Shown here piece by piece: positions 24,387 through 53,824 of a DNA stretch of 64,000 nucleotides. How positions within the stretch are numbered: the first letter of the stretch is position 1; every line of letters begins with the position of its first letter. A program made the translations under genes and the position numbers. The stretch spans positions 1,016 through 65,015 of the forward strand of contig JAENZN010000023.1 in assembly GCA_016841245.1 (NCBI GenBank), read 5' to 3'. Below the pieces are notes generated by a model. That model was not told where the DNA came from. It did no database searches and saw only the letters and a list, made by a program, of their open reading frames with translations. The stretch is from Syntrophomonas sp. GTDB lineage: Bacteria > Bacillota > Syntrophomonadia > Syntrophomonadales > Syntrophomonadaceae.

Positions 24387-25607
24387 CTACACTAGTTTTC
24401 TCAAGTATTCATATTCAAAATGTTCCAGGGTCGAAGTTATCGGAATCGGAGCTGCCTGTCCCAAACCGCATAGTGATGCTTTCTGCATAATCCGGGCCAG
24501 TACTTTGAGGTTCTCAATATCCTTGAGGCTTCCTCTCCCAGTATTAATCCGTTCCATTATTTCTTTACAGCGGAAGGTGCCTTCCCGGCAGGGGGTACAC
24601 TGACCGCAGGATTCATGTTCGAAGAACTTGGCGATTCGATTGATGATATCTACTATGTCTCGGCTCTCATCCATTACAAAGACCGCCCCTGAACCCAGGG
24701 CTGCTCCTATAGCACCCATAGAATCAAAATCAATAGGTGTATCAAGGTTTTGAGATGGGATGAAAGCGCCTGAGGTACCGCCTACCTGCACTGCTTTCAG
24801 CTTCTTGCCGCCTTTTACTCCTCCGCCCAGTTCATATATCACATCTCGGAGCAGATAATCTGTGGGCACTTCAAAATAAGTCGGATTTTCGATGTCTCCG
24901 GTAAGGGTAAGTACCTTGGTTCCAGGATAACTCTTGGCTCCTATACCTGCAAACCAATCTGCACCATTAGTCATAATATAGGGCAGACAGGCGAAGGTCT
25001 CTACATTATTGACCACTGTAGGCATACGCCACAAACCTTCTACACCTGGAAACGGGGGCTTAAATCTTGGCTCTCCCCGATGCCCTTCTATGGATTCAAT
25101 AAGAGCAGTTTCTTCGCCGCATACATAGGCACCGGCTCCCATACGTACTTCTATATTGAATTCTCCCAGAGCACCTGATTCTTTTGCATTCCCAATCGCT
25201 TTCTTAAGCATCTCTACTACAAACGGATATTCTCCTCTGCAATATATGTATCCGTTGTTGGAACCAATAGCATGTCCGCAGATGGCCATTCCTTCCAGAA
25301 GGGCCTGGGCGTTTTTCTGACATATGATTCTATCTTTATAGGTTCCCGGTTCCCCTTCGTCAAAGTTGCATACCACATACTTGGTTTCCGGGTACTGGGG
25401 TACAAAACTCCATTTCATACCGGCATTAAATCCTGCGCCGCCGCGTCCTCTAAGTCCGGATTTTTTTACTTCCTCGGTTAAATCCTTGGGATTCATACTG
25501 CGTGCCTTTTCCAGACCTTTATAACCACCGACCTGGATGTAATCGGCTGCGCTTTCAGGATTTATTTTATCGGCATGTTCAAGCAAAACACGATATTCTT
25601 GTGTCAC
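24387..25607 (-). CDS. NuoF-like FMN/NAD(H)-binding subunit (paralog of 20282-21505)
   Basis: Motifs are GRGGAGFNAGMKW and ESCGQCTPCREG. The GTG start follows GGGAGGGG. Confidence 0.9.
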   Translation of the reverse strand: MTQEYRVLLEHADKINPESAADYIQVGGYKGLEKARSMNPKDLTEEVKKSGLRGRGGAGFNAGMKWSFVPQYPETKYVVCNFDEGEPGTYKDRIICQKNAQALLEGMAICGHAIGSNNGYIYCRGEYPFVVEMLKKAIGNAKESGALGEFNIEVRMGAGAYVCGEETALIESIEGHRGEPRFKPPFPGVEGLWRMPTVVNNVETFACLPYIMTNGADWFAGIGAKSYPGTKVLTLTGDIENPTYFEVPTDYLLRDVIYELGGGVKGGKKLKAVQVGGTSGAFIPSQNLDTPIDFDSMGAIGAALGSGAVFVMDESRDIVDIINRIAKFFEHESCGQCTPCREGTFRCKEIMERINTGRGSLKDIENLKVLARIMQKASLCGLGQAAPIPITSTLEHFEYEYLRKLV

Positions 25608-26369: not shown

Positions 26370-27272
26370 TTAGCCTTTAGCCGCTTTCTCGACTTTAGCT
26401 GCCGGAGCAGGTTGTCTCATATAAGTGTACCAGTAAACGCCTCCCACAAATAAAGCACCACCTACGATGTTTCCGAGAGTAACTGGAATCAGATTTGCAC
26501 TAATGAAGTGCCCATAGCTGAAATATGCAGCAACATCTGCAACTGACATGCTGTATTGTGCAGCTACCAGATCAGGAGCAGCACCAGCAATGGTAATTCC
26601 CATGGGCACAAAGAACATATTGGCAACGCAATGCTCAAATCCACTGGATACGAAAGCCATAATCGGGAAGAAAATACCGAATATTTTTCCTACAGCATCT
26701 TTGGAAGCAAAAGCCAGCCAGACTGCCAGACACACCAGCCAGTTACAGCATATTGCCCGGCAGAATGCCTGACCGAATCCCAATGCCATCTTACCTTTTG
26801 CTATCCCTAAGGCTTTGATTCCCATTGCTGATAGAATCATAGCTCCATTGGCATCCTTGGCAGACCAATAGAGCCCAAAGAAAATGATGTAAACTAACAA
26901 TACTGATCCAACAAAGTTGGCAGCATAAACAACTACCCAGTTATACAAGAGTCCGCCCCAACCGGCCTGACCATTCATGGCTGAAATAAAGCAGGCCATA
27001 TTGTTGCCGGTGAATAGTTCTGCCCCAGCTATAACAACTAACATCAAACCTACGGAGAACACAGCACCAAACAGGAACGTATTACCTGATGTTCCAGCAT
27101 CTGAACAAGAACCTATCTTGGTAGCCAGATTAGCTCCAAAGCCGATATAAACCCCGGCCAGTATCCCTAAGACAAAAAGTTTTCCAAATGCCATTTCAGC
27201 CTTCGCTTTACCAGCATTACATGCGGCTGCAGCGATTTCTGCAGGTGATAAAAAGTTCATTCTTATCTTCAC
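26370..27272 (-). CDS. focA: Formate/nitrite transporter family channel (FocA-like)
   Basis: It shows the FNT pattern: FVLGILAGVYIGFG, AELFTGNN, FFPIMAFVSSGFEHCVANMF. The start is either GTG at 27272 or ATG at 27260 (MNFLSP). Confidence 0.88.
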   Translation of the reverse strand: MKIRMNFLSPAEIAAAACNAGKAKAEMAFGKLFVLGILAGVYIGFGANLATKIGSCSDAGTSGNTFLFGAVFSVGLMLVVIAGAELFTGNNMACFISAMNGQAGWGGLLYNWVVVYAANFVGSVLLVYIIFFGLYWSAKDANGAMILSAMGIKALGIAKGKMALGFGQAFCRAICCNWLVCLAVWLAFASKDAVGKIFGIFFPIMAFVSSGFEHCVANMFFVPMGITIAGAAPDLVAAQYSMSVADVAAYFSYGHFISANLIPVTLGNIVGGALFVGGVYWYTYMRQPAPAAKVEKAAKG

Positions 27273-28568: not shown

Positions 28569-30878
28569 TTAAATTGGGTCAGGCAGATCAAACGACACAA
28601 AAAAGGTTGTACCTGTCTGGCTAGTTTCCAATTGAATGCTGGCCTGGTGGCGAGCAGCAATACTATAACATACCGGCAGTCCCAATCCAGTTCCTTTTTC
28701 TTTGGTGGTAAAAAAAGGTACCCCAATTTTATCAATCACTTCTCTGGGTATGCCGTTTCCCTCGTCTTTAACGGATAAGATAATTTTATTCTCTTTCCGA
28801 TAAGTTTTTATTATAATCTTTTTACCCGCCTCCATTGACTCCAGGCCGTTTCTGGCCAGGTTACATATTAATTGACGGATTTCTTTTTCATCCAGCATTA
28901 TTTCAATCACTTCATTTAACTGAAGTTCAAGCCATTTATCCTGAGCTGCGGCATCTGCCTTTATTAAGGGTGCTGCGCTCATAATAATCGAATTTAAGTT
29001 CCGCAGCTCTAAGTCTACATTTTTATGTCGGGCCATACTCAAAAATTCAGTAATTATCTGATTGGCACAATCCAGTTCCTCGATCATTAAATTGAAATAT
29101 TCACTGTAAAGCTCAAAACTTTCATGCTCTTTTAATAACTGTAAAAATCCCCTGACACTGGTCATGGGATTGCGCACTTCATGACCAAGACTAGCTGCCA
29201 TTTCTCCTACCAGATTAAGCTGATCTAACCTGACCAGTTCCTTCTCCATCTGTTTTTTTTCACTTATATCGTTGGCAATAAGTATCATACATTGCTTCCC
29301 CTCAACCTCATGGATCTCGGCTGATACCAGGGCAATTATTTCTCTGCCGGTCTTGGACCGCAGAGTATATTCCCGATTGCGTACTGAACCCTTTTCTTTT
29401 AGCATTGCTACCAGCTCCGCCCTGTCCTCTGGATTTACCCAGATACCTAATTCGAGCGATGTATATCCTATTATTTGGTTATGAGATCTGCCTACCGTTT
29501 TACACATTTGCTGATTTACATCAATAAATCTTCCCTCGTCTATAGTAGAGATGGATAGTTCGTTAGGGCAGGCATTTAAAATGGATAGATATCTTTTTTC
29601 CGACTGAAGAAGGGCCTGTTCCATTTTTTTGCGTTCAGTAATATCCATAAAAGAGACCACTACGGCCTGATTTTCATGGATTACCGCCACCGTCAAGAAA
29701 ACATTTTTCATATTACCCCAACGATCTCGGAGACGAAATTCATAATTATCAGGTGCTTTCTGGCGGTCTACCTGACGCTGAAAATGATAGCTGATCATCA
29801 TATCCAGATCACGTGGATCGATAAAGTGAGTCCATTTCATCTTATGTTCTATTTCTTCCCGTTTATATCCGGACAGTCTTTCAAACTCCGTATTCACCAG
29901 GATGATATTCATATCGTACTTATACATCATCATGGCCGTTCCAGTGCTTTCAAAGGTAGCCCGGTAGTATGCTGCGGACTCTTTTAAAGCCCTCTCCATC
30001 TCCAATCTTTCAGATATATCCCAGCCCACAGCTTGGATTTCAATCATGGTTCCACTTTCATCAAATATAGCCCGGCTGTTCCATTCCTGCCAAGCAATAC
30101 TCCCATCCGGTTTGATAATTCTCCATGGGAATAAAACTTCTGGTTCTTCCTTTTTAATATTCATAAGAAGTTTCCGAATGGCTTCTCTATCAGGTTCATA
30201 TATCAAATCCAGGAAGCTTGTTCCCTGCATTTCATCCTGACTCTTATGGAAGAAACGGCAGAAGGCCTGGTTAACAAAAGTCAAAATTACAGCAGGACTA
30301 CAGCATATAACCAGTTCACTTCTGCTGTCTACTATATTATAGTAACGCTCCTGACTTAAACGGAGCTCATCCTCTAAAAACTTCTGATAAGTAATATCCC
30401 TGCCGATTATCTGTATCTCGCTTATATCACCTTTTTCAGACCATATATAATCTTTGCTCCATTCTATCCACAGCTCCGATTCCCGGGTACGATCAACGCG
30501 CATTCTAAAAACCTCAGGTTGTCTTTCCCCGGCTAGTTGAATAAAGTTTATAAACCCAGATGACAAGAATTGGGGCATCATTTCCAGCAGCTTAATTCCA
30601 ATAATGTCTTGTTGGTCTCGAACTAACAAAGACCTCATAGCTTTATTGGTAAATGTTACAGTAAAATCCGGCTTAACTCGACAAATAAAATCTTTCTGCG
30701 CTTCCACTATATTTTCATAAAGATTCGTATGTAAACTACTATGCTTCTTTTCCGTCTCCATATTATCTGTTTTTATGTTGATCAATTCCGGAATTGATAA
30801 CCGGTTAAGGAGCTGCTGATTATCTTTATTGATTTCTTGAGCCACATCTTTTTTTGCTAACATTATTATTCTCCACAC
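28569..30878 (-). CDS. Orphan multi-PAS sensor histidine kinase (KinA/sporulation-kinase-like)
   Basis: It has several PAS-like blocks, an H-box (ASLGHEVRNPMTSVRGFLQLL), and N/G boxes (LARNGLESM, DEGNGIP, GTGLGL). No response regulator is adjacent. The start is GTG at 30878 or ATG at 30863. Confidence 0.88.
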   Translation of the reverse strand: MWRIIMLAKKDVAQEINKDNQQLLNRLSIPELINIKTDNMETEKKHSSLHTNLYENIVEAQKDFICRVKPDFTVTFTNKAMRSLLVRDQQDIIGIKLLEMMPQFLSSGFINFIQLAGERQPEVFRMRVDRTRESELWIEWSKDYIWSEKGDISEIQIIGRDITYQKFLEDELRLSQERYYNIVDSRSELVICCSPAVILTFVNQAFCRFFHKSQDEMQGTSFLDLIYEPDREAIRKLLMNIKKEEPEVLFPWRIIKPDGSIAWQEWNSRAIFDESGTMIEIQAVGWDISERLEMERALKESAAYYRATFESTGTAMMMYKYDMNIILVNTEFERLSGYKREEIEHKMKWTHFIDPRDLDMMISYHFQRQVDRQKAPDNYEFRLRDRWGNMKNVFLTVAVIHENQAVVVSFMDITERKKMEQALLQSEKRYLSILNACPNELSISTIDEGRFIDVNQQMCKTVGRSHNQIIGYTSLELGIWVNPEDRAELVAMLKEKGSVRNREYTLRSKTGREIIALVSAEIHEVEGKQCMILIANDISEKKQMEKELVRLDQLNLVGEMAASLGHEVRNPMTSVRGFLQLLKEHESFELYSEYFNLMIEELDCANQIITEFLSMARHKNVDLELRNLNSIIMSAAPLIKADAAAQDKWLELQLNEVIEIMLDEKEIRQLICNLARNGLESMEAGKKIIIKTYRKENKIILSVKDEGNGIPREVIDKIGVPFFTTKEKGTGLGLPVCYSIAARHQASIQLETSQTGTTFFVSFDLPDPI

Positions 30879-31142: not shown

Positions 31143-31380
31143 GGGACACACCTGGTTAGGAGCACGGATTTCTTTAGGAGATTTAACGAATGGTGGGAAG
31201 TAGGATGAGAGTCTCGGGCTAAGGTCAGGGGACACACCTGCTTTTGAGATGGCTGAGGAACGGGGACACACCAGGTTAGGAGCACCGAGTTCTTTAGGAG
31301 ATCTAGCGGATGGTGGGTAGTAGGATGATAGTCCCGAGCTAAGGTCAGGGGACACACCTACCTTGGAGTTCCTGGTTGTA
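31143..31380 (+). repeat. Two-unit tandem repeat (period 119 nt), GGA/AGGA-rich on the + strand; candidate ncRNA locus
   Basis: The units are 31143-31261 and 31262-31380, and the 86-nt cores are about 87% identical. The GGGACACACC anchor occurs at 31143, 31229, 31263 and 31349. There are 17 GGA triplets on the + strand against 4 on the - strand across 31143-31408. The strand assignment is tentative. Confidence 0.8.
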
Positions 31381-31427
31381 GGAATGTCCCTGGGTATAGG
31401 CAGGAATGTCCCTGAGCAATTTAATAT

Positions 31428-31474
31428 TGATTCCATTGCAAAAACCCTGAAGATTACTTTTTGCTGTGGAATCA
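31428..31474. repeat. Palindromic hairpin element, copy 2
   Basis: The sequence is TGATTCCATTGCAAAAA-CCCTGAAGATTA-CTTTTTGCTGTGGAATCA. It has 5 differences from copy 1 (1358-1404) and lies 14 nt downstream of the minus-strand stop at 31488. Confidence 0.85.
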
Positions 31475-31487
31475 ATATTATCTTCTG

Positions 31488-32318
31488 CTAATCATCGTTC
31501 TTTGGCATATCGATAATTTCCATGTCCATGGACAGCGTATCTACCAGCATTATTTTTTGTCGTAATAAATCTCCTCTATTAAGTATTATTTTAAGCACTT
31601 CAGCCACCTGTAAGCTGGCCACTAGAGAAGCCGCAAATACCAGTACACTCTTTTCCCCCAGTCTATACTTCTCCTTACCTGCGTATATTTGTTCTATGAC
31701 ATCTTCACCAGGAAACTGAGTAGATACTTGGCCATACCAGGTGTTTACGGCCCCGTGCACCATCGGAATACCAAGGTGGCAACAGGCTCTGCTAAGCTCT
31801 AAGCGAGCCGGTACACTATCCAGCGCATCTACCACCACCTGCTCCCGCTTTAATGACTCTCCAGCTTCCTGTTCATTAAACTCCCGGTACATTCCATAAA
31901 ACTTGATACCCGGATTTATTCTCCTAACCCGCCGACTTACCGCCTCAATTTTCGAATGCCCAATGAGCCTATATTCAGCCATAAGCTGACGGTTAAGGTT
32001 GTGTTCCTGAAAGTAGTCATAGTCCCAGGCGCTTATTTCACCTATTCCCAATCGTGCCAGTTCTTCGATGACAAATCCTCCCAGGCCTCCGCAGCCGATC
32101 ACACTGACCCTGGAATTTAAAAGCCTGCGTTGTTCAGCAATGCTTATAGCTCCCAGGTTACGTTGATAACGCAGTGGGACGATACCAAGCGCCAGGGCAG
32201 CATCCTCGACCTGGCTTAGCGAACAACCCGTTTTACCTGCGATATTCAACTCATCAGATATAGAAAAAGAAAGACTATACTGCTGGTCGTTTAGTAGTTC
32301 TATCATTTCTTTTTTCAT
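31488..32318 (-). CDS. ThiF/MoeB/HesA-family E1-like adenylyltransferase
   Basis: It has a nucleotide-binding motif (VSVIGCGGLGGFVIEELARLGIG, DYDYFQEHNLNRQ). The ATG at 32318 lies 1 nt after the MoaD-like stop (GGTTGATATG). The track ORF extension to 32360 is rejected. Confidence 0.85.
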   Translation of the reverse strand: MKKEMIELLNDQQYSLSFSISDELNIAGKTGCSLSQVEDAALALGIVPLRYQRNLGAISIAEQRRLLNSRVSVIGCGGLGGFVIEELARLGIGEISAWDYDYFQEHNLNRQLMAEYRLIGHSKIEAVSRRVRRINPGIKFYGMYREFNEQEAGESLKREQVVVDALDSVPARLELSRACCHLGIPMVHGAVNTWYGQVSTQFPGEDVIEQIYAGKEKYRLGEKSVLVFAASLVASLQVAEVLKIILNRGDLLRQKIMLVDTLSMDMEIIDMPKNDD

Positions 32319-32319
32319 A

Positions 32320-32550
32320 TCAACCACCTGCCACCGGAGGAAAAATAGCCAGGGTATCATGGTCTTCTAATACACTGTCGAAATTAGCCCGTTTCCCATT
32401 AATAAAGATAATACCTATTGCCATTTCCTTTTTGGAAATCGAGAGATATTCCATTACCTGCTGAACAGTCGTCCCTTCTGAAAAATCCATATCACGAACC
32501 TTGAAACGCCCCTGGCGCAGGTTAGCAAACAGCTTAACGGTTAATATCAT
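32320..32550 (-). CDS. moaD: MoaD/ThiS-family ubiquitin-like sulfur carrier (C-terminal GG)
   Basis: The 76-aa product MILTVKLFANL...LAIFPPVAGG ends in Gly-Gly. GGGAGAGGTGA lies upstream of the ATG at 32550. The longer track ORF (to 32790) overlaps the upstream gene and is rejected. Confidence 0.8.
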   Translation of the reverse strand: MILTVKLFANLRQGRFKVRDMDFSEGTTVQQVMEYLSISKKEMAIGIIFINGKRANFDSVLEDHDTLAIFPPVAGG

Positions 32551-32596
32551 GGCCTTTTCACCTCTCCCAAGAACTAATACACAATGAATTAAAAAA

Positions 32597-33334
32597 CTAC
32601 ATAAATCCCTGTATTTTCTCAGCCGCAGATTTTCGCCGGCAGCTCTCGCATAAACTCTGCGTCGATATGTCCTTGCCTGGTGCTGCAATATATCCAAGTT
32701 GTTCCCTGGTGGCAAAAGGTTTCCCACAGCGCTGACAGTTGACCAGATTGAAAACCTTATTCCAAATAATCCGTTGTCCATCTTTTTCAATTACTTTAAT
32801 TGCATTAGTAGGACAAATTTCAGCACAGGCACCACAACCCAAACATACCTCAGCGGCCTCATTATACGGAGTAGCAACCTGCTTGTCTGTCCCCCTCATT
32901 ATCAGAGATATTGCACTGCTCCCCATTTCCCGGCAGGCTAACACACACAGATTACAGAGTATACATCTTTCATCTGCATTATTCTCCTCCAAGGAATTAT
33001 CAACACACCCATATTCTTTGTACATATCCTGTATTAATTGACTGCCTGGGGCCTGTTTGTATAAAAGCATTACTATATTTTTTCTCATCTTTTCAATCAG
33101 TGGGGTAGACGTTGAGACTTTTATTTCGCCTGTAATTGGATAGGTACACGAAGCTACTGTGTTTTTCATGCTTCCCCTTTCCACCTCTACCATACACAAA
33201 CGACATCTTCCCTGTCCCTCAAAAGCTTCATTATGACAGAGGGTAGGAATTTTAATTCCTGCTCTTTTAGCAGCTGTTAAAAGAGTTTCACCATATTCAA
33301 CATCTACATCCCGGCCATCAATTATTATCTTCAT
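32597..33334 (-). CDS. NuoG/HydA N-terminal-like Fe-S protein ([2Fe-2S] plus [4Fe-4S] clusters; BfuA-like core without a catalytic domain)
   Basis: Cys patterns are CHNEAFEGQGRCRLCMVEV, ERCILCNLCVLAC and CLGCGACAEICPTNA. AGGAGGGTGGG lies upstream. Confidence 0.8.
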   Translation of the reverse strand: MKIIIDGRDVDVEYGETLLTAAKRAGIKIPTLCHNEAFEGQGRCRLCMVEVERGSMKNTVASCTYPITGEIKVSTSTPLIEKMRKNIVMLLYKQAPGSQLIQDMYKEYGCVDNSLEENNADERCILCNLCVLACREMGSSAISLIMRGTDKQVATPYNEAAEVCLGCGACAEICPTNAIKVIEKDGQRIIWNKVFNLVNCQRCGKPFATREQLGYIAAPGKDISTQSLCESCRRKSAAEKIQGFM

Positions 33335-33345
33335 TACCCACCCTC

Positions 33346-35160
33346 CTATCTAATTCTAACTGCATCAAACCTGCAAGTATCTATGCAGGATCCACATGCA
33401 ATACATTTCTCAACATTAATGGTGTGAGCTTCCTTTTTCTCACCGTATATAGCATCTACCGGACAATTTTTTATACAGATACCACAGCCCGTACATTTTT
33501 CCTTATCAATGTAAAATTCGGTTAAATCCCGACATACTCCAGCAGGACACCGGTGTTCTTCTATATGAGCCAGATATTCGTCCCTGAAATATCTAAGCGT
33601 AGATAATACCGGGTTGGCAGCGGTTTTGCCCAATCCGCACAGAGCAGCTATCTTAACCGTTTCCGCAATTTCCTCCAGTAGTTCGAGATCACTGATTTGC
33701 CCTTTACCCTCACATATCCGGGTTAATATTTCCTGCATATGCCGGATACCTTCCCGGCAGGGCACACATTTTCCACATGACTCCCCAGCCAGGAAATTCA
33801 AATAATATCGGGCTACTTCCACCATACAGGTACGTTCATCCATTACTATCAGACCGCCGGAACCCATCATAGACCCGACCTCTTTCAGAGTATCAAAGTC
33901 AACCGGTAAATCCAATAGCTCAGCGGGTATACACCCCCCGGAAGGTCCACCGGTTTGAACAGCCTTAAACTGTCTCCCCTTTAAGATACCCCCGCCTATT
34001 GCAAAGATTATTTCTCTTAAAGTGGTACCCATAGGTACTTCTACTAATCCGGTATTGACAACTTTACCCACCAGTGAGAAAACTTTAGTTCCTTTACTGT
34101 TTTCTGTACCTATAGATGCAAATTTGTCTGCACCTTCGTTAATAATTACTGGAATATTGGCCCAGGTCTCAACATTGTTGATTACTGTAGGCTGTCCCCA
34201 AAGTCCTTTCTCAGCCGGAAAAACATATTTATCTCGAGGTTCACCTATTTTTCCTTCGATAGAAGCTATCAGTGCCGTCTCCTCACCGCACACAAAGGCT
34301 CCTCCACCTCGTACTACCTCAATATCAAAAGCAAATCCCTGGCCCATAATGTTTTCACCTAGAAAAGATCTTTTACGAGCATCGATTAATGCCAGATTAA
34401 GATTCTTCAAAGCTAGTGCATATTCATCTCTTACATATATAAAACCATTTGAGGCACCTGTTGCCAGAGCACAAATCACCATACCCTCGATAACCGTATG
34501 GGGATCTCCTTCCATAATACTTCGATCCATAAAAGCACCCGGGTCACCTTCATCTCCATTGCAGATGATATAATGAGGAGTACTTGACTGTTTAGCACAG
34601 CTTTGCCATTTTAATCCAGCCGGAAAACCTCCTCCGCCTCGACCACGCAAACCAGATTTTGTTACTTCTGTAATAATTTGTTCTGCTGACATAGAAAACG
34701 CTTTTTCTAATGCCTTATAACCGTCCCTATCAATATAGTCCTCTATGGATGCAGGATCGATCTCCCCAATATTACGCAGAGCAATTTTCTTCTGTTTTTG
34801 GTAAAAATCCAATTCAAGATGAGGAGATTTAACTCTCTTTTTGCTGGCAGGATTACGGTATAAAAGACGCTCTATCACTTCATTATTTTTTATCGTCTTA
34901 TCTATGATAGCCGGAACATCATCAACCTTTACCTGGCAGTAGGTAATATCATCCGGCAATATTTTTACCAGCGGCCCCTGCTCACACCAGCCATTGCATC
35001 CGGTAGATTTAGCAAAGGTCTTCACCTCGACATCATCCAGAGACTGAATTTGCTCCTGAATTGCATCAAATACCTGCAGACTGCCATTAGCCTGACATCC
35101 AGTCCCACAGCATACTAATATTTGTCGGCCTTCATTACTATACATCTTCATCACCTGCAT
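33346..35160 (-). CDS. HydB/BfuB-type NuoF-like flavoprotein (N-terminal [2Fe-2S] domain, FMN/NAD site, C-terminal 2x[4Fe-4S] ferredoxin domain)
   Basis: Motifs are [11 protein letters not shown]...[56 protein letters not shown] and [11 protein letters not shown]. The start may instead be an ATG at 35151 or 35145. Confidence 0.88.
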
Positions 35161-35632
35161 CCCCCCTGTATTTTTCTATAATTTTCAGGATACCTGATGA
35201 AGTAACCTTGGCATGAACGGTATCATTCACCATTACCACCGGAGCTATGGCACAGGCTCCCAGGCAGTTGACAGTTTCCAGCGAAAACACCTTGTCTTCG
35301 GTAGTTTCTCCTGGTTTTATACCCAGGTTGTTGTATATTTGATCAATCAAAACTGCTGACCCTTTAATATGACAGGCAGTACCATCACATACCCTGATGT
35401 TATAACGGCCTTTAGGAATCAGACTAAAAGCTTTGTAAAAAGTAGCCATCGAATAGGTCTGACTAAAAGGTACCTCAGCATGTTTTGCTATCATTTTCAG
35501 GGCTTCCTTGGGAAGATAGTTATATTTTTTTTGTACATCCTGCATCATGGCCAGAATATATCTTTTTTCCCGTGGGTAGGCTGTGACTATAGGACTTATC
35601 ATATCTTCTGTATTACTCACATCCTCAGCCAT
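35138..35632 (-). CDS. NuoE/HydC-type [2Fe-2S] subunit
   Basis: The Cys pattern is CDGTACH ... CLGACAIAPV. AAAGGAGGA lies upstream. Confidence 0.88.
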   Translation of the reverse strand: MAEDVSNTEDMISPIVTAYPREKRYILAMMQDVQKKYNYLPKEALKMIAKHAEVPFSQTYSMATFYKAFSLIPKGRYNIRVCDGTACHIKGSAVLIDQIYNNLGIKPGETTEDKVFSLETVNCLGACAIAPVVMVNDTVHAKVTSSGILKIIEKYRGDAGDEDV

Positions 35633-35705
35633 ATCATTTATCCTCCTTTAAAGACTGCCTGCCACCCATCTAGAATGGCAGGCAACCTATTATAATGCAA
35701 ATTTA

Positions 35706-37511
35706 TCAGGATAAACCCAATTCAGATTTTTTTTCTCCGGTGGGAACACCATTTTCATCCCAGCCGCGGATTTCATAATAATGGGGAAGCATTTTATCCA
35801 GTTCGGTTACACGCCCTTTATGCGGCCCATCAGCCATAGGTACTTCCACTAGCCTTGGGGGTAGGATATCATCATCTTTGCTAAATCCAGCATTCAAATT
35901 AAACAAACGTTCCAAATTCCATATCCGTTCACCAGCCAGCAGGAATTCTTCGTCCGTAAGTTTTAAACCGGTTGCAGTCCTTACTTGTTCGGAAATTTCA
36001 GGCAGACCGATGGCAAAAGTTGTAAAAAGGCATATTCCCGCCGAATCACATAGACCGGTTAAATCCTGGAAAATCTTGAGAAGTTCTGGTTTTCCTTCAG
36101 TAGCATCGGGATCAACCACTACTGGAATTCCTAATACTTCTGGCGATGTCATATAACCTCTTACATGACATCCGCCTCTATTGGATGTAGCATATTCAAG
36201 TCCAATCCCCTGCTGTCCGCGGGGATCATAAGCCGGCAGTTCCTGTTTCTTTACCGACATCGAAAATTCCGGATGTCCATAGCTTTCAGCTAAACGGTAT
36301 GAGCCTTCAGCGAGTTTATCGCCAAATCCCTCCCGATAAGCAGTTTTCCGGGTCATTTCAACCAGCATATCACAATCTCCCCATCTCATCGGGGTCTCCA
36401 TATCATCCTGAGGTATTAAGCCTTTTTCATACATTTCCACAGCACAGCTGATAGTCCCTCCCAGAGTAATTGGGTCCATCCCCAGTTCATTGCACAAGAA
36501 GTTAGCCTTGGAAACAGCTTCAAAATCGTCAATATTCAAATTGGCTCCAAATACCCAGGTAGCTTCGTATTCCGGACCTTCACCAAACCCTTTGTATTTC
36601 CCTTGGCTTATTTTAGTTACTCGCCCGCATCCGATAGGACAACCAAAACAACCTTTATTGCGAACTAAATATTTTTCAGCCTGATATTCACCGGATATTT
36701 TTTCAGCATTAGGGAAAATAGCCGCTTCACTAAAATTCTTAACCGGCAAACCACCATGGGTATTAAGAATGTTGACCAGTACATTGGTTCCATAAGCAGC
36801 CAAACCCTGCCCGGTAACCGGATGAGCCTTCAATTTGGAACGCGCATCTACAATTGCCTGCATAAATCCATCAGGATCTGCTACTTTAATTCCGCCACTA
36901 CCTCTTACAGCTATACCTTTTAGATTTTTAAAACCCATTACCGCACCAACACCGGAACGACCAGCAGCACGATTATACTCATTCATAATGCAAGCAAATT
37001 TTACCAGATTCTCACCGGCCGGACCGATACATGATACTTTGGCTTCATCATCAGTCTCTGCTTTAATCATATCGGTAGTTTGTACCACATCTTTGCCCCA
37101 TATTTCAGAAGCATCTCTAATTTCCACCTCATCATTATTAATCGAGATGTACACCGGTTTAGCTGATTTTCCTTCGATTATTATTCCATCATAACCGGCA
37201 AATTTAAGTTCTGGCCCGAAACTTCCGCCTGAATTGGAAGCAGCAATAGTACCATTAAGCAGACCTTTGGTAACAACATTAAACCTTCCACCTGAAGATG
37301 CAGCTGTTCCGGTAACCGGTCCCGTCATATAGATGATTTTATTTTCAACACTCAGCGGCTCTACTTTAGCATCAACTTCATCAGTAAAAATCTTCGTTCC
37401 TAATCCCCGGGCACCAATATAATTACGCAAATCATCCTTTTTCAGATCCTCGGTTTTAATAGTTCCGCTGCTCAAATCAATCCTCAAAATCTTACCTATC
37501 CAACCAAACAT
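35706..37511 (-). CDS. aor: Aldehyde:ferredoxin oxidoreductase family (tungstopterin) enzyme
   Basis: The 601-aa product has AOR N- and C-domain signatures: [59 protein letters not shown] lies upstream. Confidence 0.9.
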
Positions 37512-37513
37512 GA

Positions 37514-37993
37514 TTAAATCACCTCCTCATAAACTGCTTTGAATTTCTCCGCATAGTCCCTGCGTCTGCCCACATTGGCTGGAGCCGGTTCTGCATAGGT
37601 TATTGCTCCTGATGGGCAATATTTAACACACACAGGGTCCCCGCCACACAGATCACACTTGGTAATAATATCGCTTACCGGATCATAGATAGTTGCCCCG
37701 AACGGACAAGCGATAGTACACATCTTGCACCTCAAGCAAACATCATGATTAACCCGCATTGCTCCAGTATCCTCATCTCTGCTGATAGCACTAACAGGAC
37801 ATACCTCCATACAAGCTGCCACACTACACTGCTGACAAACGATGGGAGTCGAAAATCCCACCTTTTCAAAATTAAATACCGAAATACGGGAACGAACAGG
37901 ATTAAATTCCTTGGTGTGAACAAATGAGCACATCATCTCACATGTCCTACACCCGGTGCATTTTCCCGGTTGTACAATTAATTCTTTGTGCAT
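37514..37993 (-). CDS. Polyferredoxin-like 4x[4Fe-4S] electron-transfer subunit (AorA-like)
   Basis: It has four CxxCxxCxxxC(P)-type motifs ([52 protein letters not shown]). I prefer the ATG at 37993. The track gives GTG at 37999. Confidence 0.85.
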
Positions 37994-38109
37994 AACCACC
38001 TGGTTCCAGCTGCTTGAAACCAGGTATTCACCTCCTTATCTTTATTGTGTTTTACTAAAGTTACGCAACTAAGACCATCTACTGCAAACATGATCTATAA
38101 AATGTTAAA

Positions 38110-38124
38110 GCAATTTTTGTGCCA
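38110..38124 (-). promoter_or_regulatory. Sigma-54 (-24/-12) promoter of the AOR operon
   Basis: The minus strand reads TGGCAC-AAAAA-TTGC, an exact match to the TGGCAC-N5-TTGC consensus. It lies about 115 nt upstream of the first gene and downstream of the EBP gene. Confidence 0.85.
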
Positions 38125-38387
38125 ACCAGATAATCTGAGAAAAAAATTCGGCACCTTATCCAAAGGGGCCGAATGCAAAGGTATGTAAATTTATAATGCC
38201 ATAACAGGCAGGGAAGCAGGCACCAGAAATTTCTGTTTACTTCTTTTCACTCCATATCGCCTGCAGGTATATTACTCCTGCTTTTATTTACCACCAAAAT
38301 TCGTATTTTATATGTTACAGTAATTGTTACAGGCTTGTTGATTATTGACACACCACGGTTACACCACTTACACAGTGCTTTCACAGT

Positions 38388-40430
38388 TTATATTGATATA
38401 TTATAGTATTTTATTCTCCTATATATAGTATTGCGAGAAACTCCCATTTCCCGTGCAACCTGGCTTATATTTCCGCCGAAACGGCTTATCAGTTCCAGGA
38501 GTTCTTGCTTCTCCTGTTCTTCACGGATTTTCCTTTTTTTATTTCTTTCCAGGTTGATGTTTAACGGGCCAGTAATATTAGAATTACCATTAGACCTATT
38601 ATCTAACTGTATTTCCGCCCTATCGCTTATTACCGGTCGGTAAACCTCAACCGGAATATCTTTGATTTCGAGGGCGTTACCCTGAGCCATACACACCATC
38701 CTCTCCACTACATTTTCTAGCTCCCGTACATTTCCAGGCCAGTTATAATTTCCCAGTACCGACATAATTTCCGGCTGGATATCATCTATTTCCACTCCCT
38801 GTCGACGACAGATCTGATTCACAAAATAATCAAATAGGAGAGGTATGTCTTCGGGATGCTGACGCAAAGGAGGAAGATTGACCTTCAAAACATTCAGGCG
38901 ATAAAATAAATCCCGCCTGAAACCTCCTTTCTCGACCGCCTCCTGCAAGTTTTTATTGCTGGCACAGATAATACGAACATCAACTGGTATGATTCGGTTA
39001 TCCCCAATTCTAATTATAGCCTTCTCCTGTATAGCCCTTAAGAGCGCACCTTGCTTGCCATAAGTCATATCTCCTATTTCATCCAGAAATAAAGTTCCCC
39101 CGCTGGCCATTTCGAATTTTCCCGGTCTCCCTCCTCGGTGGGCTCCAGTAAAGGCCCCCTCCACATAACCGAATAGTTCACTGCCTAATAGATCCCGCGG
39201 TATAGCCGCACAGTTAAGTGCTACAAAAGGACCATCACAACGCTTGCTCTGATTATGGATAGCCTGAGCAAATACCTCTTTACCGGTACCACTCTCCCCT
39301 TGCAAGAGAATATTGTTATCATTTAAAGCAGCAAGCCTGCCAATTCTTACCGATTCTGCGATCTCGGGACTGCCTCCTATAATATCCTCAAAAGTAAATC
39401 TAGCCTGCGCACCGCTAAAACGATTTACCAGATTCTTAATTTTGGTTATAGGACTTAATATGATAACCCCCCCGTTGAGTTTACCCTCCTCATCTCTAAT
39501 CGCTTTACCAGATGCAAGACAATGTATATTGCGCCCTTCCCAACTTACGTTTATCTCTATATCTGAACAGGGGTTACCGGCTGCCAGCATTTCTTTTACA
39601 CGCGGGACTTCTCTTAAAATATCTTCCAGGTGTACACCCTCAATATCCTCTGCCGATCTTTTCAAGATACGTTCCGCACCTGGATTTACCTGTTCAATAA
39701 CCCCTCGCTGGTTGATAATCACTACCCCTTCCGACATAGTGTGGAAAATATTGTGCAATCGATTATTTACCAGTATTAATTCCCGGTTTTGCTGCTGAAC
39801 CTGCATCTGCTCCTCAATAGCTGCTACGGCTGATACTGCCATCCCCAGAGTATGCTGATGACTGGTTTCAGCAGGACCGGATATTTGCAGGACCCCCACT
39901 AACTGCTGGTTATTATCTAAAATTGGAGCTGCTGAACAGGTCCAATAATGTATGGACTGACAATAATGTTCCGCACCCGATACTTGTACCGGTCCTCTCA
40001 GCACTAGTGCAGTGCCAATACCATTAGTTCCAGCAATTTCCTCCATCCAACAGCTTCCTTTAACCAGATTGATTTCTTTACCTTTTACGATAGCATTACT
40101 GGCTCCAAGTATTTCCAGTATATAACCCTTTTCATCCGAAAGCATTACTGCAAATCCAGTTCCGGCAACGAATTCATACAACTTCTGCATAAAGGGAAGA
40201 GCAATTCCTATCAAAGCCTTTTTTCTCTGCAAACGTTCATTCAGATGCTTTTCGTCTAAAATTTCGTTCGTAATTTCCACATATGGATCAACCCCTGCTT
40301 GCTTACATCGGTGCCATGATGCAGCAATTTCGCTGCGCACGATCGCTGCATCCAACTCTCCTCGGTCTATAAATTGCTGCCAGGCTCTTGCTATACCATT
40401 TATACTGTCATCAAAAAACTTTTCAACCAT
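38388..40430 (-). CDS. Sigma-54-dependent transcriptional activator (AcoR-like: GAF-like N-terminus, PAS, AAA+, Fis-type HTH)
   Basis: The AAA+ EBP motifs are [19 protein letters not shown] and the RELENVVER block. The C-terminal HTH reads [21 protein letters not shown]. Confidence 0.9.
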
Positions 40431-46000: not shown

Positions 46001-48208
46001 TTAAAGATTGAAACGTATATAAAAAGTGGTTCCAGAAGGTGAGGAATCTACATTGATAACAGCATTATGTCTTTCAGCAATACTATAACAAACAGATAGA
46101 CCCAACCCGGTGCCATGTTCTTTGGTTGTGACGAAAGGAGTTCCCAGTTTATTAAGGATTTCCGTTGGCATTCCACATCCCTCATCTTTGACTTCTAGAA
46201 CTATACTGCTATCTTCGGTGTAGGTGCGAATAGTAATATTCTGCATAGGCTCCACAGCTTCCATGGCATTGCGGACTAAGTTCAGCAGCAGCTGTCGGAT
46301 TTCTTTGGGGTCCAGGAATTGATCCGGGATTTCCTCCAGTTGAAATTCTATATGTTTATCGTGAGCGAGAGCATCTGCTTGAATTAAAATACTGAGGTTA
46401 TCAATAATGCGGTTGATATTCCCTGGTTCTAATTGCAGTCTTATGTTGGGAGCGAGTGAAAGAAATTCTGTAATGATTGAATCAGCTCGGTCTAACTCTT
46501 CAATCATGATATCAAAATATTCACTGTCCTCCTGGTAAGCTGGTTTATCTTTCAACATCTGTAGAAAACCACGTACCGTGGTCATGGGATTTCTAGTTTC
46601 ATGGCTGATGCTGGCTGCCATTTGTCCAATTAAATTCAGTCGATCCAGACGGGCCATTTCTTCCTGGATTTGTATTCTCTGGCTGATATCAGTGATAGAA
46701 TTTAATAAACAGGCCTGGCCATCGATATTGATTATTTCCGATGACATTAAACCGATATGTTTCTCTCCATCTTTAGTGCAAAAGGGAACTTCGAAATTTT
46801 GTATTGTTCTTCCCTGGAGTATCCTGCCGGTGAGGTATTGAAGGTCTTCTATTCTGCACCAGAGGCCGATATCTTTTGTGCTGCGTCCTATTACTTCTTC
46901 CCGGGTATAACCGGTTAGACGGCAGAACATTTCATTCACATCTATACAGTTCCATCCATCCAGGGTTGTAATGGTCATCATACTTGGACTTGAGTGAAAA
47001 GCCCTGGAAAATTTTTCTTCTGATAGGCGCAAAGACTCTTCAGCTTTTTTACGGTCTGTGATATCAGTAGTCAAAACGGCTATCTGACCAACTTCCAGAT
47101 AAAAGATGCGGACCGCAATAATTTTATCAAGATAATCGATATATTCTTCAATATATTGTGGTTCTTTGGTTGATGCCACCTTATTTAAAGGGGCCATCAG
47201 TTTAAAATATATATCTGGTAAAACTTCACCTAATTTCCTGCCAATTAATTGTTCGCCGGTGGTATGGGTCAATGCTTCAAAGGCCGGGTTAACATCCAAA
47301 CATTGATAATCCATTTGATTTTTATTGTTTGAGTATGATATTTCATATAGGCTGAAACCCTCGTCTATAGAATTGAACAAAGATCGATACTTGCGATCGC
47401 TTATATGCAGGGCTTGTTCAGTTCTAGTATGTCTTCGCATCTCTGCCTTCAGCATCTCGTTTAAGATGGTGAGACTTTTGCTTTTTTCGTGCCCCAGCTT
47501 TTCAAATATGTACCGGTTCTTGCGCAGTAAGGATTTGTTCCCAACTGAATTCTGAACCGGTTTTGGGTACTCGGAATTCTCTATCAGTTTTAATTCTTTT
47601 GAACATTTGATTAAAGTGGACTGGTGATTGCACATCACGTCTATCATCTGGGCCGCATCACACTTATCCAGAGCATAAGAACACATGAATATTATCCTTT
47701 GATCCTGGATAATATGATTAAGTTCTTCTTCATAGTCTTGAAAACTTTTCCAGTACTTAGTTCCCAACCACATATTACTGGATGCGATCCGCAGGCCTTT
47801 ATATCCTTTGGCTATAGCCTTATTAAGCTGGGTAAACCAACCACTTTGCACTTCAACGATTCGTAGTTTGCCCTGCCTCTGATACCAATCCTTACTATCA
47901 ATAAATACTATTTGACCTTTATTATAATAGGAATCAAAATCTGGCATAGCTTTTTTTAGAGCTATCCTGGTCTGATGACCGGATAATACTTCGGAATTCA
48001 AACACAGACAATACTCATTGTTGCTTAAGCCTGCTTGTATAAACGGAATTAATACTCCCAGCAGATCCTGTTTGGTCTGGTAAAGCAAGCACATATGAGT
48101 ACCCCAGGGAATTTGATCGAATCTATCTATCTCAGTTTCTCCGGACTTATGGTTTATAGCCGGTTTTAATCCTGGAGGCTGGTTATCACCATGGATTAGA
48201 GAGAGCAA
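46001..48208 (-). CDS. Orphan sensor histidine kinase with N-terminal MEDS domain and two PAS domains
   Basis: The N-terminus (GTHMCLLYQTKQDLLGVLIPFIQAGLSNNEYCLCL) resembles the MEDS domain. The H-box is ASISHETRNPMTTVRGFLQML and the ATPase boxes are LVRNAMEAV, DEGCGMP and GTGLGL. It is paralogous to 28569-30878 in the catalytic core. Confidence 0.85.
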   Translation of the reverse strand: MLSLIHGDNQPPGLKPAINHKSGETEIDRFDQIPWGTHMCLLYQTKQDLLGVLIPFIQAGLSNNEYCLCLNSEVLSGHQTRIALKKAMPDFDSYYNKGQIVFIDSKDWYQRQGKLRIVEVQSGWFTQLNKAIAKGYKGLRIASSNMWLGTKYWKSFQDYEEELNHIIQDQRIIFMCSYALDKCDAAQMIDVMCNHQSTLIKCSKELKLIENSEYPKPVQNSVGNKSLLRKNRYIFEKLGHEKSKSLTILNEMLKAEMRRHTRTEQALHISDRKYRSLFNSIDEGFSLYEISYSNNKNQMDYQCLDVNPAFEALTHTTGEQLIGRKLGEVLPDIYFKLMAPLNKVASTKEPQYIEEYIDYLDKIIAVRIFYLEVGQIAVLTTDITDRKKAEESLRLSEEKFSRAFHSSPSMMTITTLDGWNCIDVNEMFCRLTGYTREEVIGRSTKDIGLWCRIEDLQYLTGRILQGRTIQNFEVPFCTKDGEKHIGLMSSEIINIDGQACLLNSITDISQRIQIQEEMARLDRLNLIGQMAASISHETRNPMTTVRGFLQMLKDKPAYQEDSEYFDIMIEELDRADSIITEFLSLAPNIRLQLEPGNINRIIDNLSILIQADALAHDKHIEFQLEEIPDQFLDPKEIRQLLLNLVRNAMEAVEPMQNITIRTYTEDSSIVLEVKDEGCGMPTEILNKLGTPFVTTKEHGTGLGLSVCYSIAERHNAVINVDSSPSGTTFYIRFNL

Positions 48209-48609: not shown

Positions 48610-49764
48610 ATGAATTTATTAACCAATAAAGATTTGAAAACATTGATAAATTATCAAGATGATTTATGTGTTACCATTTATCTGCCTACCTTCAGGGCAG
48701 GAGCTGAAACCCGGCAGGGTCGAATTAGACTCAAGAATTTAATTCGAGAAGCTGAAGAACGACTGATAAGCAGCGGACTGCGCTCTTCCCAGGCCAGCCA
48801 CCTCTTGGAACCACTCAAAAAGCTAACTATTGATGATTTATTCTGGCAGCATCAACGAGATGGTCTGGCCATATTCCTATCATCAGATGTCTTTAATTAT
48901 TACCATCTGCCTATGAATTTTGATGAATTTTTACAGGTTGGCAGGCGCTTTCATCTCAAACCTCTGCTTCCCCTGCTCAGTGGGAACGGCCTGTATTATG
49001 TTCTGGCTCTCAGCCAAAACGCGGTCCGGTTCCTGCAGTGTACCCGAGCCAGTATAAGAGAATTGGAACTGGAGAATATACCTCATAATATGGCAGAGGC
49101 GATGCAGTTTGATGATCCTGAAAAACAACTTCAGTATCATACCAACACCCTGGAGGGGACTAATCGTCAAGCAGCTGCTATTTTTCATGGCCATGGAGTA
49201 GGTATTGACGATTCCAAAGATAACATTTTACGATATTTTCGCTTAATTGATAGAGGGCTCCGTGAGGTACTACGGGAGGAAAATTCACCATTATTTCTGG
49301 TAGGAGTGGGCTTCCTTCATTCAATTTACCGGGAAGCCAACACTTATGCTTATCTAGCAGGTGAAGGGATACCTGGAAATCCAGAAGAGCTGAGTGCTGA
49401 AGATCTCCAAACCATGGTCTGGCCGCTGGCCGAGCAGTACTTCCGGCAGGCGGAGCAGGAAGCCATAAACCGCTTCGGACCGCTGAAAGGCACCGGAAAG
49501 ACTACCTCTAATATTATCGAGGCTGCTCCCGCAGCCTATAATGGCAGAGTAGAGTCGCTGTTTATGGCTCAGGGGGCTGGTCAATGGGGCAGCTTCGATA
49601 CCCAGGCCAACACTGTGGCTGTTCATGAACAAAAAGAACCGGAAGATGAAGACCTGTTTGACCTGACTGCCATCCAGACCATCATTAATGGAGGAAAAGT
49701 CTATGTACGGGAACAGGATGAAATACCGGATGGTCAGGATTTAGCCGCTTTGTTCCGCTATTAG
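48610..49764 (+). CDS. Hypothetical protein, probable baeRF (bacterial archaeo-eukaryotic release-factor-like) family member
   Basis: The N-terminus (LCVTIYLPTFRAGAETRQGRIRLKNLIREAEERL) matches my recollection of the baeRF3/7-type proteins. GAGGAGG lies upstream. The family assignment is from memory only. Confidence 0.5.
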   Translation: MNLLTNKDLKTLINYQDDLCVTIYLPTFRAGAETRQGRIRLKNLIREAEERLISSGLRSSQASHLLEPLKKLTIDDLFWQHQRDGLAIFLSSDVFNYYHLPMNFDEFLQVGRRFHLKPLLPLLSGNGLYYVLALSQNAVRFLQCTRASIRELELENIPHNMAEAMQFDDPEKQLQYHTNTLEGTNRQAAAIFHGHGVGIDDSKDNILRYFRLIDRGLREVLREENSPLFLVGVGFLHSIYREANTYAYLAGEGIPGNPEELSAEDLQTMVWPLAEQYFRQAEQEAINRFGPLKGTGKTTSNIIEAAPAAYNGRVESLFMAQGAGQWGSFDTQANTVAVHEQKEPEDEDLFDLTAIQTIINGGKVYVREQDEIPDGQDLAALFRY

Positions 49765-52560: not shown

Positions 52561-52660
52561 AAGTCTTAACCGCCTTTTCGGTCTTTTGTATATACTATGA
52601 TAATTTTTTATAATTATAAATGTAAAGTTTATAGTATAGCTAGACATAAAAACCATACAT

Positions 52661-52786: not shown

Positions 52787-52811
52787 GGGAAGAACGGTTT
52801 TCTTGCAAACC

Positions 52812-53789: not shown

Positions 53790-53824
53790 GGAGCATCTCC
53801 TGGGCTGCACTGGAGTAACAAATA

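Follow-up and report, generated by a model that had tools for sequence, protein, structure and literature searches.

A likely sigma-54-controlled operon for a bifurcating tungsten aldehyde oxidoreductase in Syntrophomonas sp.

Gene content and layout of the locus

The locus described here lies at positions 31488-40430 of a 64,000-nt stretch of DNA from Syntrophomonas sp. (GCA_016841245.1, contig JAENZN010000023.1), referred to below as the window, and comprises eight intact open reading frames (ORFs), all on the minus strand, as determined from the ORF list and Pfam domains. We consider it likely that the region is a worS-worL-worC-worB-worA-moaD-thiF operon for a bifurcating (BF-type; Wor-Bfu, Type 2 Bfu) tungsten aldehyde oxidoreductase (AOR), controlled by an enhancer-binding protein (EBP) and sigma-54. 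This enzyme class is already known, so that the core result chiefly confirms an annotation. All eight genes, with their domains, were found where an initial annotation, made from the letters of the same DNA, had placed them. The features of the locus are as follows:

38388-40430, minus strand: EBP gene, 680 aa (Pfam GAF, PAS, Sigma54_activat, HTH_8), candidate regulator of the wor operon
38313-38385, minus strand: candidate upstream activating sequence (UAS), a phased array of TGT-heptamers
38139-38174, minus strand: terminator-like hairpin (38146-38174) followed by a U7 tract (38139-38145), from RNA folding
38110-38124, minus strand: predicted sigma-54 -24/-12 promoter, TGGCAC-AAAAA-TTGC, about 116 nt 5' of the worS ATG
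37514-37993, minus strand: worS, polyferredoxin, 159 aa, 16 Cys (4x[4Fe-4S]) and a C-terminal helix
35706-37511, minus strand: worL, predicted tungstopterin aldehyde oxidoreductase, 601 aa (Pfam AFOR_N and AFOR_C)
35652-35688, minus strand: worL/worC intercistronic stem-loop (stem of 16 bp, loop of 5 nt), from folding
35138-35632, minus strand: worC (BfuC), NuoE-like, 164 aa (Pfam 2Fe-2S_thioredx)
33346-35160, minus strand: worB (BfuB), bifurcating-type NuoF-like, 604 aa (from Pfam domains)
32597-33334, minus strand: worA (BfuA, Type 2), NuoG-N-like, 245 aa (Fer2_4 and two Fer4)
32320-32550, minus strand: MoaD/ThiS-like sulfur carrier, 76 aa, C-terminal GG (Pfam ThiS)
31488-32318, minus strand: ThiF/MoeB-like E1 adenylyltransferase, 276 aa (Pfam ThiF)

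The worS ATG at 37993 agrees with the N-termini of homologues, the GTG at 37999 given by the ORF lister being two codons 5' of it, and thiF has an alternative ATG at 32360. Several of the junctions are tight, with gaps of 2 nt between worS and worL, 11 nt between worB and worA and 1 nt between the MoaD-like and ThiF-like genes, and with an overlap of 23 nt between worC and worB; translational coupling, which had been claimed for several of the genes, is therefore plausible across these junctions, but the genes flanking the worL/worC (L/C) gap (73 nt) and the worA/MoaD gap (46 nt) stand further apart. When words from the locus were used to search sequencing runs, one match was returned, stored as a contig and holding about 30% of the words, together with zero RNA runs. 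Enzyme activity, metal content and co-transcription are inferred from sequence throughout.

With respect to translation initiation of worS, a strong Shine-Dalgarno-like AAGGAGGTG lies 36 nt 5' of the ATG (window 37999-38037, minus strand), a 7-bp hairpin, CCTGGTT...AACCAGG (38024-37999), stands between this element and the ATG, and a weaker AGGTGG is present right at the start codon.

Subunits of the predicted enzyme and their solved relatives

The five structural proteins correspond to the five chains of PDB entry 9MQX, the cryo-EM structure of Acetomicrobium mobile WorABC(SL)3, an assembly in which each ABC is joined by three SL units (Feng et al. 2025, PMC12318220). When each subunit was searched against characterised systems in the PDB, from which the bit scores are taken (identities to 9MQX chains were calculated separately), this entry provided the top match for WorL, WorB, WorA and WorC. 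The WorL match to 9mqx_D scored 831 bits (61% identity), against 716 bits for P. furiosus AOR and 642 bits for AorB, and WorB matched 9mqx_B with 793 bits (59%), with bifurcating NiFe and FeFe HydB coming next. WorA aligned over its full length with 9mqx_A (188 bits, 39% identity), and WorC matched 9mqx_C with 159 bits (45%). WorS was nearer to AorA (8c0z_C, 155 bits, 49%) than to 9mqx_E (120 bits, 37%).

Ligand conservation was judged over 33-80 orthologues, depending on the subunit, and every cofactor ligand was invariant, i.e. those of the [2Fe-2S] and [4Fe-4S] clusters, the WorB Zn site, the WorA zinc finger, and the cluster and catalytic residues of WorL. In WorL, these include Cys288, Cys291, Cys295 and Cys494 for the [4Fe-4S] cluster, as well as PEYE from residue 313 and His449, of which the Glu and His represent the AOR active site. 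The 16 Cys of WorS are conserved, as is its C-terminal helix, (R/K)(R/K)xxYAxKFKxxYEEV, and WorC carries four invariant Cys (82, 87, 123 and 127) for its [2Fe-2S] cluster. WorB is composed of an N-terminal thioredoxin-like [2Fe-2S] domain (13-88), an FMN domain, SLBB, NADH_4Fe-4S and a C-terminal 2x[4Fe-4S] domain (550-601), and carries FMN/NADH motifs together with a Cys/His/Cys/Cys site equivalent to the Zn site B2. In 38/38 sequences, no variation was seen in the ligands for the B5 [2Fe-2S] cluster, the B1 [4Fe-4S] cluster, the Zn site (C445, H532, C538, C543) or B3/B4. The two extra WorB domains that the initial annotation had pointed out are thus both present in Pfam, which also agrees that the NuoF paralogues in the two formate dehydrogenase (FDH) clusters of the window (407 aa, 20282-21505, plus strand; 406 aa, 24387-25607, minus strand) are without them, having Complex1_51K and NADH_4Fe-4S only. 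These short, non-bifurcating paralogues offer a built-in comparison within the same window.

WorA holds 16 Cys in four sets of four, assigned to A1 [2Fe-2S], two [4Fe-4S] clusters and a C-terminal CxxC...CxxC zinc finger, which are invariant in 43/43 sequences, and its C-terminal adaptor helix is conserved. Since these 43 sequences share no conserved His, and no match to NADH-G_4Fe-4S_3 was found with Pfam, the A3 cluster is absent, and a WorA without a His-ligated A3 cluster is what Type 2 Bfu enzymes require (PMC9304861, PMC12318220). The predicted enzyme therefore shares with that of A. mobile the same five subunit types with all cofactor ligands kept, a WorA with no A3 but with a zinc finger and adaptor helix, the nanowire helix of WorS, and a WorB with an N-terminal [2Fe-2S] domain, Zn site and C-terminal 2x[4Fe-4S]. 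It differs in sequence (37-61% identity), in its S-L-C-B-A gene order, in the presence of MoaD/ThiF genes and in its sigma-54/EBP elements, whereas a Synergistota locus (L062) has the order C-B-A-S-L; moreover, the host here is a syntrophic fatty-acid oxidiser. The holoenzyme is probably ABC(SL)3 and not 1:1, to which the conservation of both docking helices, and an L/C stem-loop that could set the expression ratio, point indirectly.

Two further families of solved or characterised enzymes help to place the complex. Bifurcating HydABC and NiFe-HydABCSL (Bfu, PMC9304861) have the same BfuBC core architecture and cofactors, with HydB as the next-best relative of WorB, but WorA, at 245 aa, is a shortened version here, in which the H-cluster and the A5 domain are lacking, and the third substrate would be an aldehyde, handled by WorSL. 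Aromatoleum aromaticum AorABC (8C0Z, PMC6365974) belongs to the same AOR clade, also has MoaD-like genes following in the operon, and includes the closest solved relative of WorS (AorA, 49%), which forms filaments via its C-terminal helix. Its AorC, however, contains FAD and carries out a non-bifurcating reduction of NAD, whereas no FAD or pyridine-nucleotide oxidoreductase domain was detected by Pfam in the seven operon genes, where BfuABC takes that place and no AorC-type gene is present; the enzyme is therefore not of the AorABC type. Taken together, the 9MQX matches and the ligand conservation give good support, by homology, to the proposal that the five subunits form a tungsten aldehyde enzyme in which NAD(H) and ferredoxin are coupled.

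The framing of such enzymes as a type only recently recognised underestimated what had been published. The A. mobile enzyme, WorABCSL, was reportedly purified by Schut et al. in 2021. The class was placed in the Bfu family in 2022 (PMC9304861), E. limosum WOR1 was studied in 2024 (PMC11725836), and the cryo-EM structure followed in 2025.

MoaD-like and ThiF-like genes

At the end of the operon, the MoaD-like protein scores 34.6 bits against the NCBIfam moaD model (cut-off 66), and across the Syntrophomonadaceae its gene accompanies the operon at one end or the other. The ThiF-like protein falls under the cut-offs of the MoeB and ThiF NCBIfam models; its GCGGLGG and NLNRQ motifs are present, but it has only 4 Cys, no CxxC zinc motifs of the MoeB type and no rhodanese domain. 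A 2006 study (PMC1779556) reported that MoaD, AOR and MoeB are linked, with S. wolfei among the examples, and interpreted the linkage as tungsten-cofactor-specific molybdopterin synthesis. The GG terminus, the ATP-binding E1 motifs and the AOR linkage all agree with the dedicated pterin-sulfuration pair of the initial annotation, whereas the low scores, the missing CxxC motifs and the lack of a MoaE gene in the operon do not, and this role is best described as likely but not established. The annotation had also cited Aromatoleum aorD and aorE as MoaD- and MoeB-like, but both are described as MoaD-like (PMC6365974), so that the accessory pair here differs in consisting of one MoaD-like and one ThiF-like protein.

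The same features could indicate that the pair does not supply pterin sulfur at all, but serves a SAMP/Urm1-type conjugation, another thiolation pathway, or as a chaperone of apo-WorL, and in agreement with this the SAMP1 and UbaA models match as well. We regard such a function as unlikely, given that MoaD is steadily linked to AOR in both bacteria and archaea (PMC1779556), that aorD/aorE (PMC6365974) and wor1X (PMC11725836) are regarded as tungsten-cofactor maturation factors, and that MoaD and SAMP roles can coexist.

Conservation of the locus and the worL/worC stem-loop

Gene neighborhoods were compared among the 80 best AOR loci, which were obtained from an AOR scan using one genome per species. 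The scan returned a Syntrophomonas metagenome-assembled genome (MAG) at 98% identity, followed by dozens of Syntrophomonadaceae at 72-80%. The order S-L-C-B-A was present in about 50 of the 80 loci, among them essentially all from Syntrophomonadaceae, others from Sedimentibacter and Eubacteriaceae MAGs (AOR 60-62% identity) and some from scattered other phyla, while C-B-A-S-L was seen in the Synergistota locus mentioned above and in two Bacillota MAG loci (L032, L033). Syntrophomonadaceae loci come in two arrangements, Type I with EBP, S-L-C-B-A and MoaD-ThiF (the window and its closest relatives), and Type II with MoaD-ThiF, S-L-C-B-A and then an EBP about 50% identical to that of the window. 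In Sedimentibacter loci, no more than a MoaD-like gene is retained, 5' of worS, and the sigma-54 promoter is absent from them. Cultured relatives with the operon include S. wolfei subsp. methylbutyratica and Thermosyntropha lipolytica, which makes experiments feasible; in the open literature, nothing was found on this operon in Syntrophomonas beyond the 2006 MoaD-AOR neighborhood table.

The wider gap between worL and worC contains a stem-loop (35688-35652) with the worC Shine-Dalgarno directly 3' of it. This gap folds with a minimum free energy of -25.4 kcal/mol, compared with -14.4 kcal/mol for shuffles (z = -4.35), and z was below -2 in 43/44 L/C gaps (the window plus 43 S-L-C loci, including Sedimentibacter and more distant taxa; median -3.9). 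The hairpin sequences are unrelated between loci, i.e. the structure is kept and the sequence is not, and within the window the stem-loop is single-copy and not a dispersed repeat. Its conservation as a structure appears to be new. E. limosum WOR1 (wor1SLXABC, PMC11725836) is likewise a Firmicutes-type Wor-Bfu enzyme with S-L first and then C-B-A (judged from locus tags), and its wor1SL mRNA exceeded the mRNA of the genes further downstream about threefold, "for unknown reasons" (PMC11725836). In light of this threefold difference and of the ABC(SL)3 composition in A. mobile, we hypothesize that the stem-loop is a leaky terminator or an RNA-stability element which sets the 3:1 SL:ABC ratio. 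It would do so by lowering worCBA relative to worSL, through either partial termination or a stabilised upstream RNA, and thus offers a simple, testable mechanism for the 3:1 stoichiometry.

Several observations weigh against the assignment of the whole locus to one BF-type complex. The L/C hairpin could be a full terminator that divides two transcription units, WorS scores higher against the non-bifurcating AorA than against A. mobile WorS, and WorA and WorS are only 37-39% identical to their A. mobile counterparts. To these can be added the sub-cut-off scores of the MoaD/ThiF pair, with an E1 that has no MoeB CxxC and an operon that has no MoaE, and the report that ferredoxin peptides went undetected in the proteomes of S. 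wolfei, whose degradative pathways are described as giving no reduced ferredoxin (PMC7311640). The strong hairpin and the affinity of WorS to AorA would also fit an arrangement in which WorSL is a conventional ferredoxin-only (or NAD-only) AOR, and the NuoEFG-like genes encode a separate enzyme that happens to share the locus. We give this arrangement very little credence, as the Wor-specific zinc finger and the WorS-docking helix are found in WorA in 43/43 sequences, the 245-aa WorA is without a catalytic domain of its own, and the S-L-C-B-A (or C-B-A-S-L) linkage is kept across several phyla. In addition, no promoter for worC was seen in the L/C gap, although a sigma-70 scan is weak evidence.

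Sigma-54 promoter, candidate activator array and candidate regulator

The exact TGGCAC-N5-TTGC sequence that had been noted at 38124-38110 was confirmed, and is one of 2 such matches in the window, where 0.13 would be expected. When one mismatch is allowed, the motif count is at chance level, and therefore only the exact match, its position and its conservation carry weight. In about 30 Syntrophomonadaceae loci, of Type I and Type II alike, worS is preceded at a distance of 70-300 nt by a -24/-12 element that matches TGGCAC-N5-TTGCW well. This element is absent from the loci outside the family, save for one weak match (L048); these outside loci are without a close EBP orthologue. The second exact match (60518-60532, plus strand) is about 180 nt upstream of a gene for a 403-aa ChlI/BchI-like AAA+ ATPase (60711-61922), with no EBP gene beside it. 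The rpoN gene is not in the 64-kb window, and the loci were not searched for it, but the second exact motif and the several EBP paralogues in the genus suggest that rpoN is present in the genome.

Further upstream, TGT elements start at 38385, 38374, 38363, 38352, 38331 and 38319, with spacings of 11, 11, 11, 21 and 12 nt, and the last two are exact TGTAACA heptamers, forming TGTAACA-N5-TGTAACA at 38331-38313 on the minus strand. The direct TGTTACA repeat of the initial annotation hence exists, but its position (38323-38341) was 10 nt off the real 38313-38331, and its spacer is N5 and not N4. Similarly, the ACACCAC repeats that had been listed as separate candidate sites are present on the plus strand (38350-38356 and 38361-38367), yet they are part of the same 11-nt-phased TGT array. 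Across the loci, TGTNACA occurs at 2.9 per kb in the 270 nt upstream of the promoter, a count that includes one mis-indexed locus and rises to about 7 per kb without it, versus 0.11 per kb elsewhere in the same loci. In these otherwise unalignable upstream sequences, the spacings between TGTNACA sites cluster at 11-12, 20-22, 33, 42-44 and 52-53 nt, i.e. at multiples of about 11, a pattern that we interpret as helical phasing.

In the EBP, the Walker A motif is found at residue 378, GAFTGA at 425 and the Walker B motif at 447. Its best NCBIfam models are DhaR and PrdR, both under cut-off, so that it is classified from its sequence as an uncharacterised member of the AcoR/DhaR-like GAF-PAS group. 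EBP orthologues flank the operon in Syntrophomonadaceae loci, and promoter, repeat array and cognate EBP co-occur in about 30 of them, which supports the small-molecule-sensing, AcoR-like sigma-54 activator that had been suggested. Such a pairing of sigma-54 promoter and helically phased TGTNACA array, in about 30 loci and limited to the family, appears to be new.

It might be argued that this EBP controls another target, with the wor operon under a different activator or sigma-70, and that the TGGCAC-N5-TTGC match is fortuitous, considering that the one-mismatch motif count equals chance and that most EBP homologues outside the family are not beside AOR genes. This is highly improbable in view of the two exact matches versus 0.13 expected, the co-occurrence of promoter, array and EBP in about 30 loci in spite of gene-order rearrangement, and the absence of the promoter from nearly all loci without the EBP family.

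The most similar regulatory arrangement is that of Clostridium, for which a sigma-54/AorR regulon covering aor-moaD has been predicted (PMC6615313). There (AorR and AdhR; PMC6615313, PMC7017808), as in the window, an AOR gene accompanied by moaD would be under an EBP of GAF-PAS-AAA+-HTH architecture and a sigma-54 promoter, and the UAS are of the TGT...ACA class with multiple sites. The Clostridium target, however, is a monomeric AOR, and its UAS (e.g. TGTTCGAAACAGAACA) differ from the phased TGTAACA heptamers found here. Orthology of the EBP with Clostridium AorR was considered and is not established, since homologues, at 35-52% identity, are beside AOR-family genes only sometimes, and not usually, outside the Syntrophomonadaceae, and the sites differ.

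A related regulator was found in locus L096 (6974-14272), which derives from a Syntrophomonas MAG that also carries a wor locus. Here, as also in L087 and L149, a paralogue 50% identical to the EBP precedes a GTAACA-CT-TGTTAC site, an exact sigma-54 promoter (9213-9227 in L096) and an aldehyde dehydrogenase gene, an arrangement that weakly supports an aldehyde-related signal. The aldehyde dehydrogenase gene in L096 is followed by genes for NAD kinase, a NuoE-like protein and a 587-aa NuoF-like protein with C-terminal 2x[4Fe-4S], and the locus may represent another aldehyde system under EBP control, associated with a Bfu-like module.

Putative terminator and riboswitch search

Between the EBP gene with its array and the promoter sits the hairpin with U7 tract (38174-38139; z = -1.72 for the 76-nt stretch folded), and a hairpin with a T-run just upstream of the promoter is also present in many orthologous loci. 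This element looks like the intrinsic terminator of the EBP gene, insulating the sigma-54 promoter. Both this hairpin and that in the L/C gap were overlooked by a simple terminator scan, because of a loop of >8 nt or a U-tract outside its rules, and were found by folding.

E. limosum WOR1, which similarly has an accessory tungsten-processing gene in its operon, is under a molybdenum/tungsten cofactor (Moco/Tuco) riboswitch with Rex and CcpA control, whereas the locus here has a sigma-54 promoter, candidate UAS and EBP instead, and two accessory genes at the operon end. No Moco/Tuco riboswitch (RF01055) was detected in the worS leader, either at the gathering threshold or at E<=1, or in seven related loci. 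The only sub-threshold RNA match in the leader was VrrA (25.6 bits, cut-off 50), probably driven by the terminator hairpin. The same RF01055 model does find two tandem aptamers elsewhere in the window (14216-14333 and 14497-14633, plus strand; 79.6 and 66.4 bits), ahead of FDH cluster 1, and tandem Moco motifs, with at least 15 copies per genome, have already been reported for S. wolfei (PMC2408646). A riboswitch-free wor operon, unlike that of E. limosum WOR1, appears to be new, and the EBP, phased TGTNACA array and sigma-54 promoter together form a testable regulatory unit that takes the place of the E. limosum riboswitch in a riboswitch-rich genus.

Proposed mechanism and physiological role

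Taking the locus as a BF-type Wor-Bfu operon, we propose the following sequence of events. The adjacent GAF-PAS EBP would bind the phased TGTNACA array and activate the sigma-54 promoter upon a small-molecule signal, plausibly an aldehyde, while the terminator after the EBP gene would leave this promoter as the only detectable one of the operon. The pyranopterin dithiolene of the tungsten cofactor would receive its sulfur, as thiocarboxylate, from the MoaD-like and ThiF-like proteins. By homology to A. mobile WorABC(SL)3, WorL would then oxidise aldehyde at a tungsten bis-pyranopterin site, with electrons passing via the WorL [4Fe-4S] cluster into the four clusters of WorS. WorS units are expected to be chained by their C-terminal helices, and the chain to dock on WorA at its zinc-finger domain and C-terminal helix, from where electrons could follow the path A4-A2-A1 to cluster B1 and FMN of WorB. 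The BfuBC core would split them, reducing NAD+ at the FMN, and ferredoxin or flavodoxin via C1 and then B3/B4, for an overall predicted reaction of 2 RCHO + NAD+ + 2 Fdox -> 2 RCOO- + NADH + 2 Fdred. The A. mobile enzyme, the one member for which this obligate coupling has been shown, oxidises aldehydes only with joint reduction of NAD+ and ferredoxin (PMC9304861).

The same complex could in principle run backwards, as a confurcating carboxylic-acid reductase that uses NADH and reduced ferredoxin to form aldehydes and then alcohols, thereby acting as an electron sink. AOR enzymes are reversible, and acetate reduction by AOR has been proposed in acetogens (PMC6615313) and T. phaeum (PMC6895022); AorABC is reported to reduce acids (PMC9295118), and Bfu enzymes are reversible in principle (PMC9304861). 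Nonetheless, this direction is improbable, as Syntrophomonas catabolism is reported to have no output of reduced ferredoxin (PMC7311640), the A. mobile and E. limosum enzymes run oxidatively (PMC9304861, PMC11725836), and in the window the operon has no alcohol dehydrogenase gene linked to it.

Hydrogenase and formate dehydrogenase of Syntrophomonas have been described as NADH-dependent and non-bifurcating, and beta-oxidation as a process from which no reduced ferredoxin results (PMC7311640). In Syntrophomonadaceae, both of these enzyme types have short NuoF subunits of the non-bifurcating kind, and what makes the oxidative BF-type enzyme of interest is that a complete bifurcating, ferredoxin-reducing module would be present in a syntroph family usually described as ferredoxin-independent and non-bifurcating. 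A wor system that is family-wide, bifurcating and probably inducible could be a little-noted source of low-potential electrons, or could serve aldehyde detoxification, as in gut bacteria. A more far-reaching version, that a conserved, sigma-54-induced WorABC(SL)3 is a main dedicated low-potential electron source in Syntrophomonadaceae, with the L/C stem-loop setting a 3:1 SL:ABC ratio, is unlikely. If true, one route might be the oxidation of aldehydes formed from acyl-CoA or fatty alcohols, in which thioester or aldehyde energy would be traded for reduced ferredoxin or flavodoxin.

Neighboring features

Just downstream of thiF lies a 120-bp tandem repeat (31143-31359; 1.8 copies, 89% match), which yields spurious ORFs and holds three AGGTGTGTCCCCTGACCTTAGC-like copies. 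The region between this repeat and thiF (31380-31490) contains a strong hairpin (z = -4.4), which may be the operon terminator. Further downstream, an orphan multi-PAS histidine kinase (28569-30878, minus strand), with no adjacent response regulator, is syntenic only in L001, L003, L004 and L031; it was rejected as a part of the system, as this synteny is limited to the closest relatives and the EBP is without a receiver domain.

The two FDH alpha genes (14835-17525, plus strand; 21664-24366, minus strand) each have one in-frame stop, resulting in pieces of 354 aa plus 537 or 529 aa. Pfam domains run on across the stop, which is probably a selenocysteine codon. In each FDH cluster, the short NuoF of non-bifurcating type (406-407 aa) is accompanied by one NuoE. 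Further genes are, on the upstream side of cluster 1, FdhD and two of the MoeA-like kind, and, in cluster 2, one for a formate channel of the FocA type (26370-27272). Elsewhere in the window are a MEDS-PAS histidine kinase (46001-48208, minus strand), a baeRF-family release-factor-like protein (48610-49764), and a c-di-AMP riboswitch (52655-52794, plus strand, 110 bits) ahead of an amino-acid ABC transporter (52989-55227).

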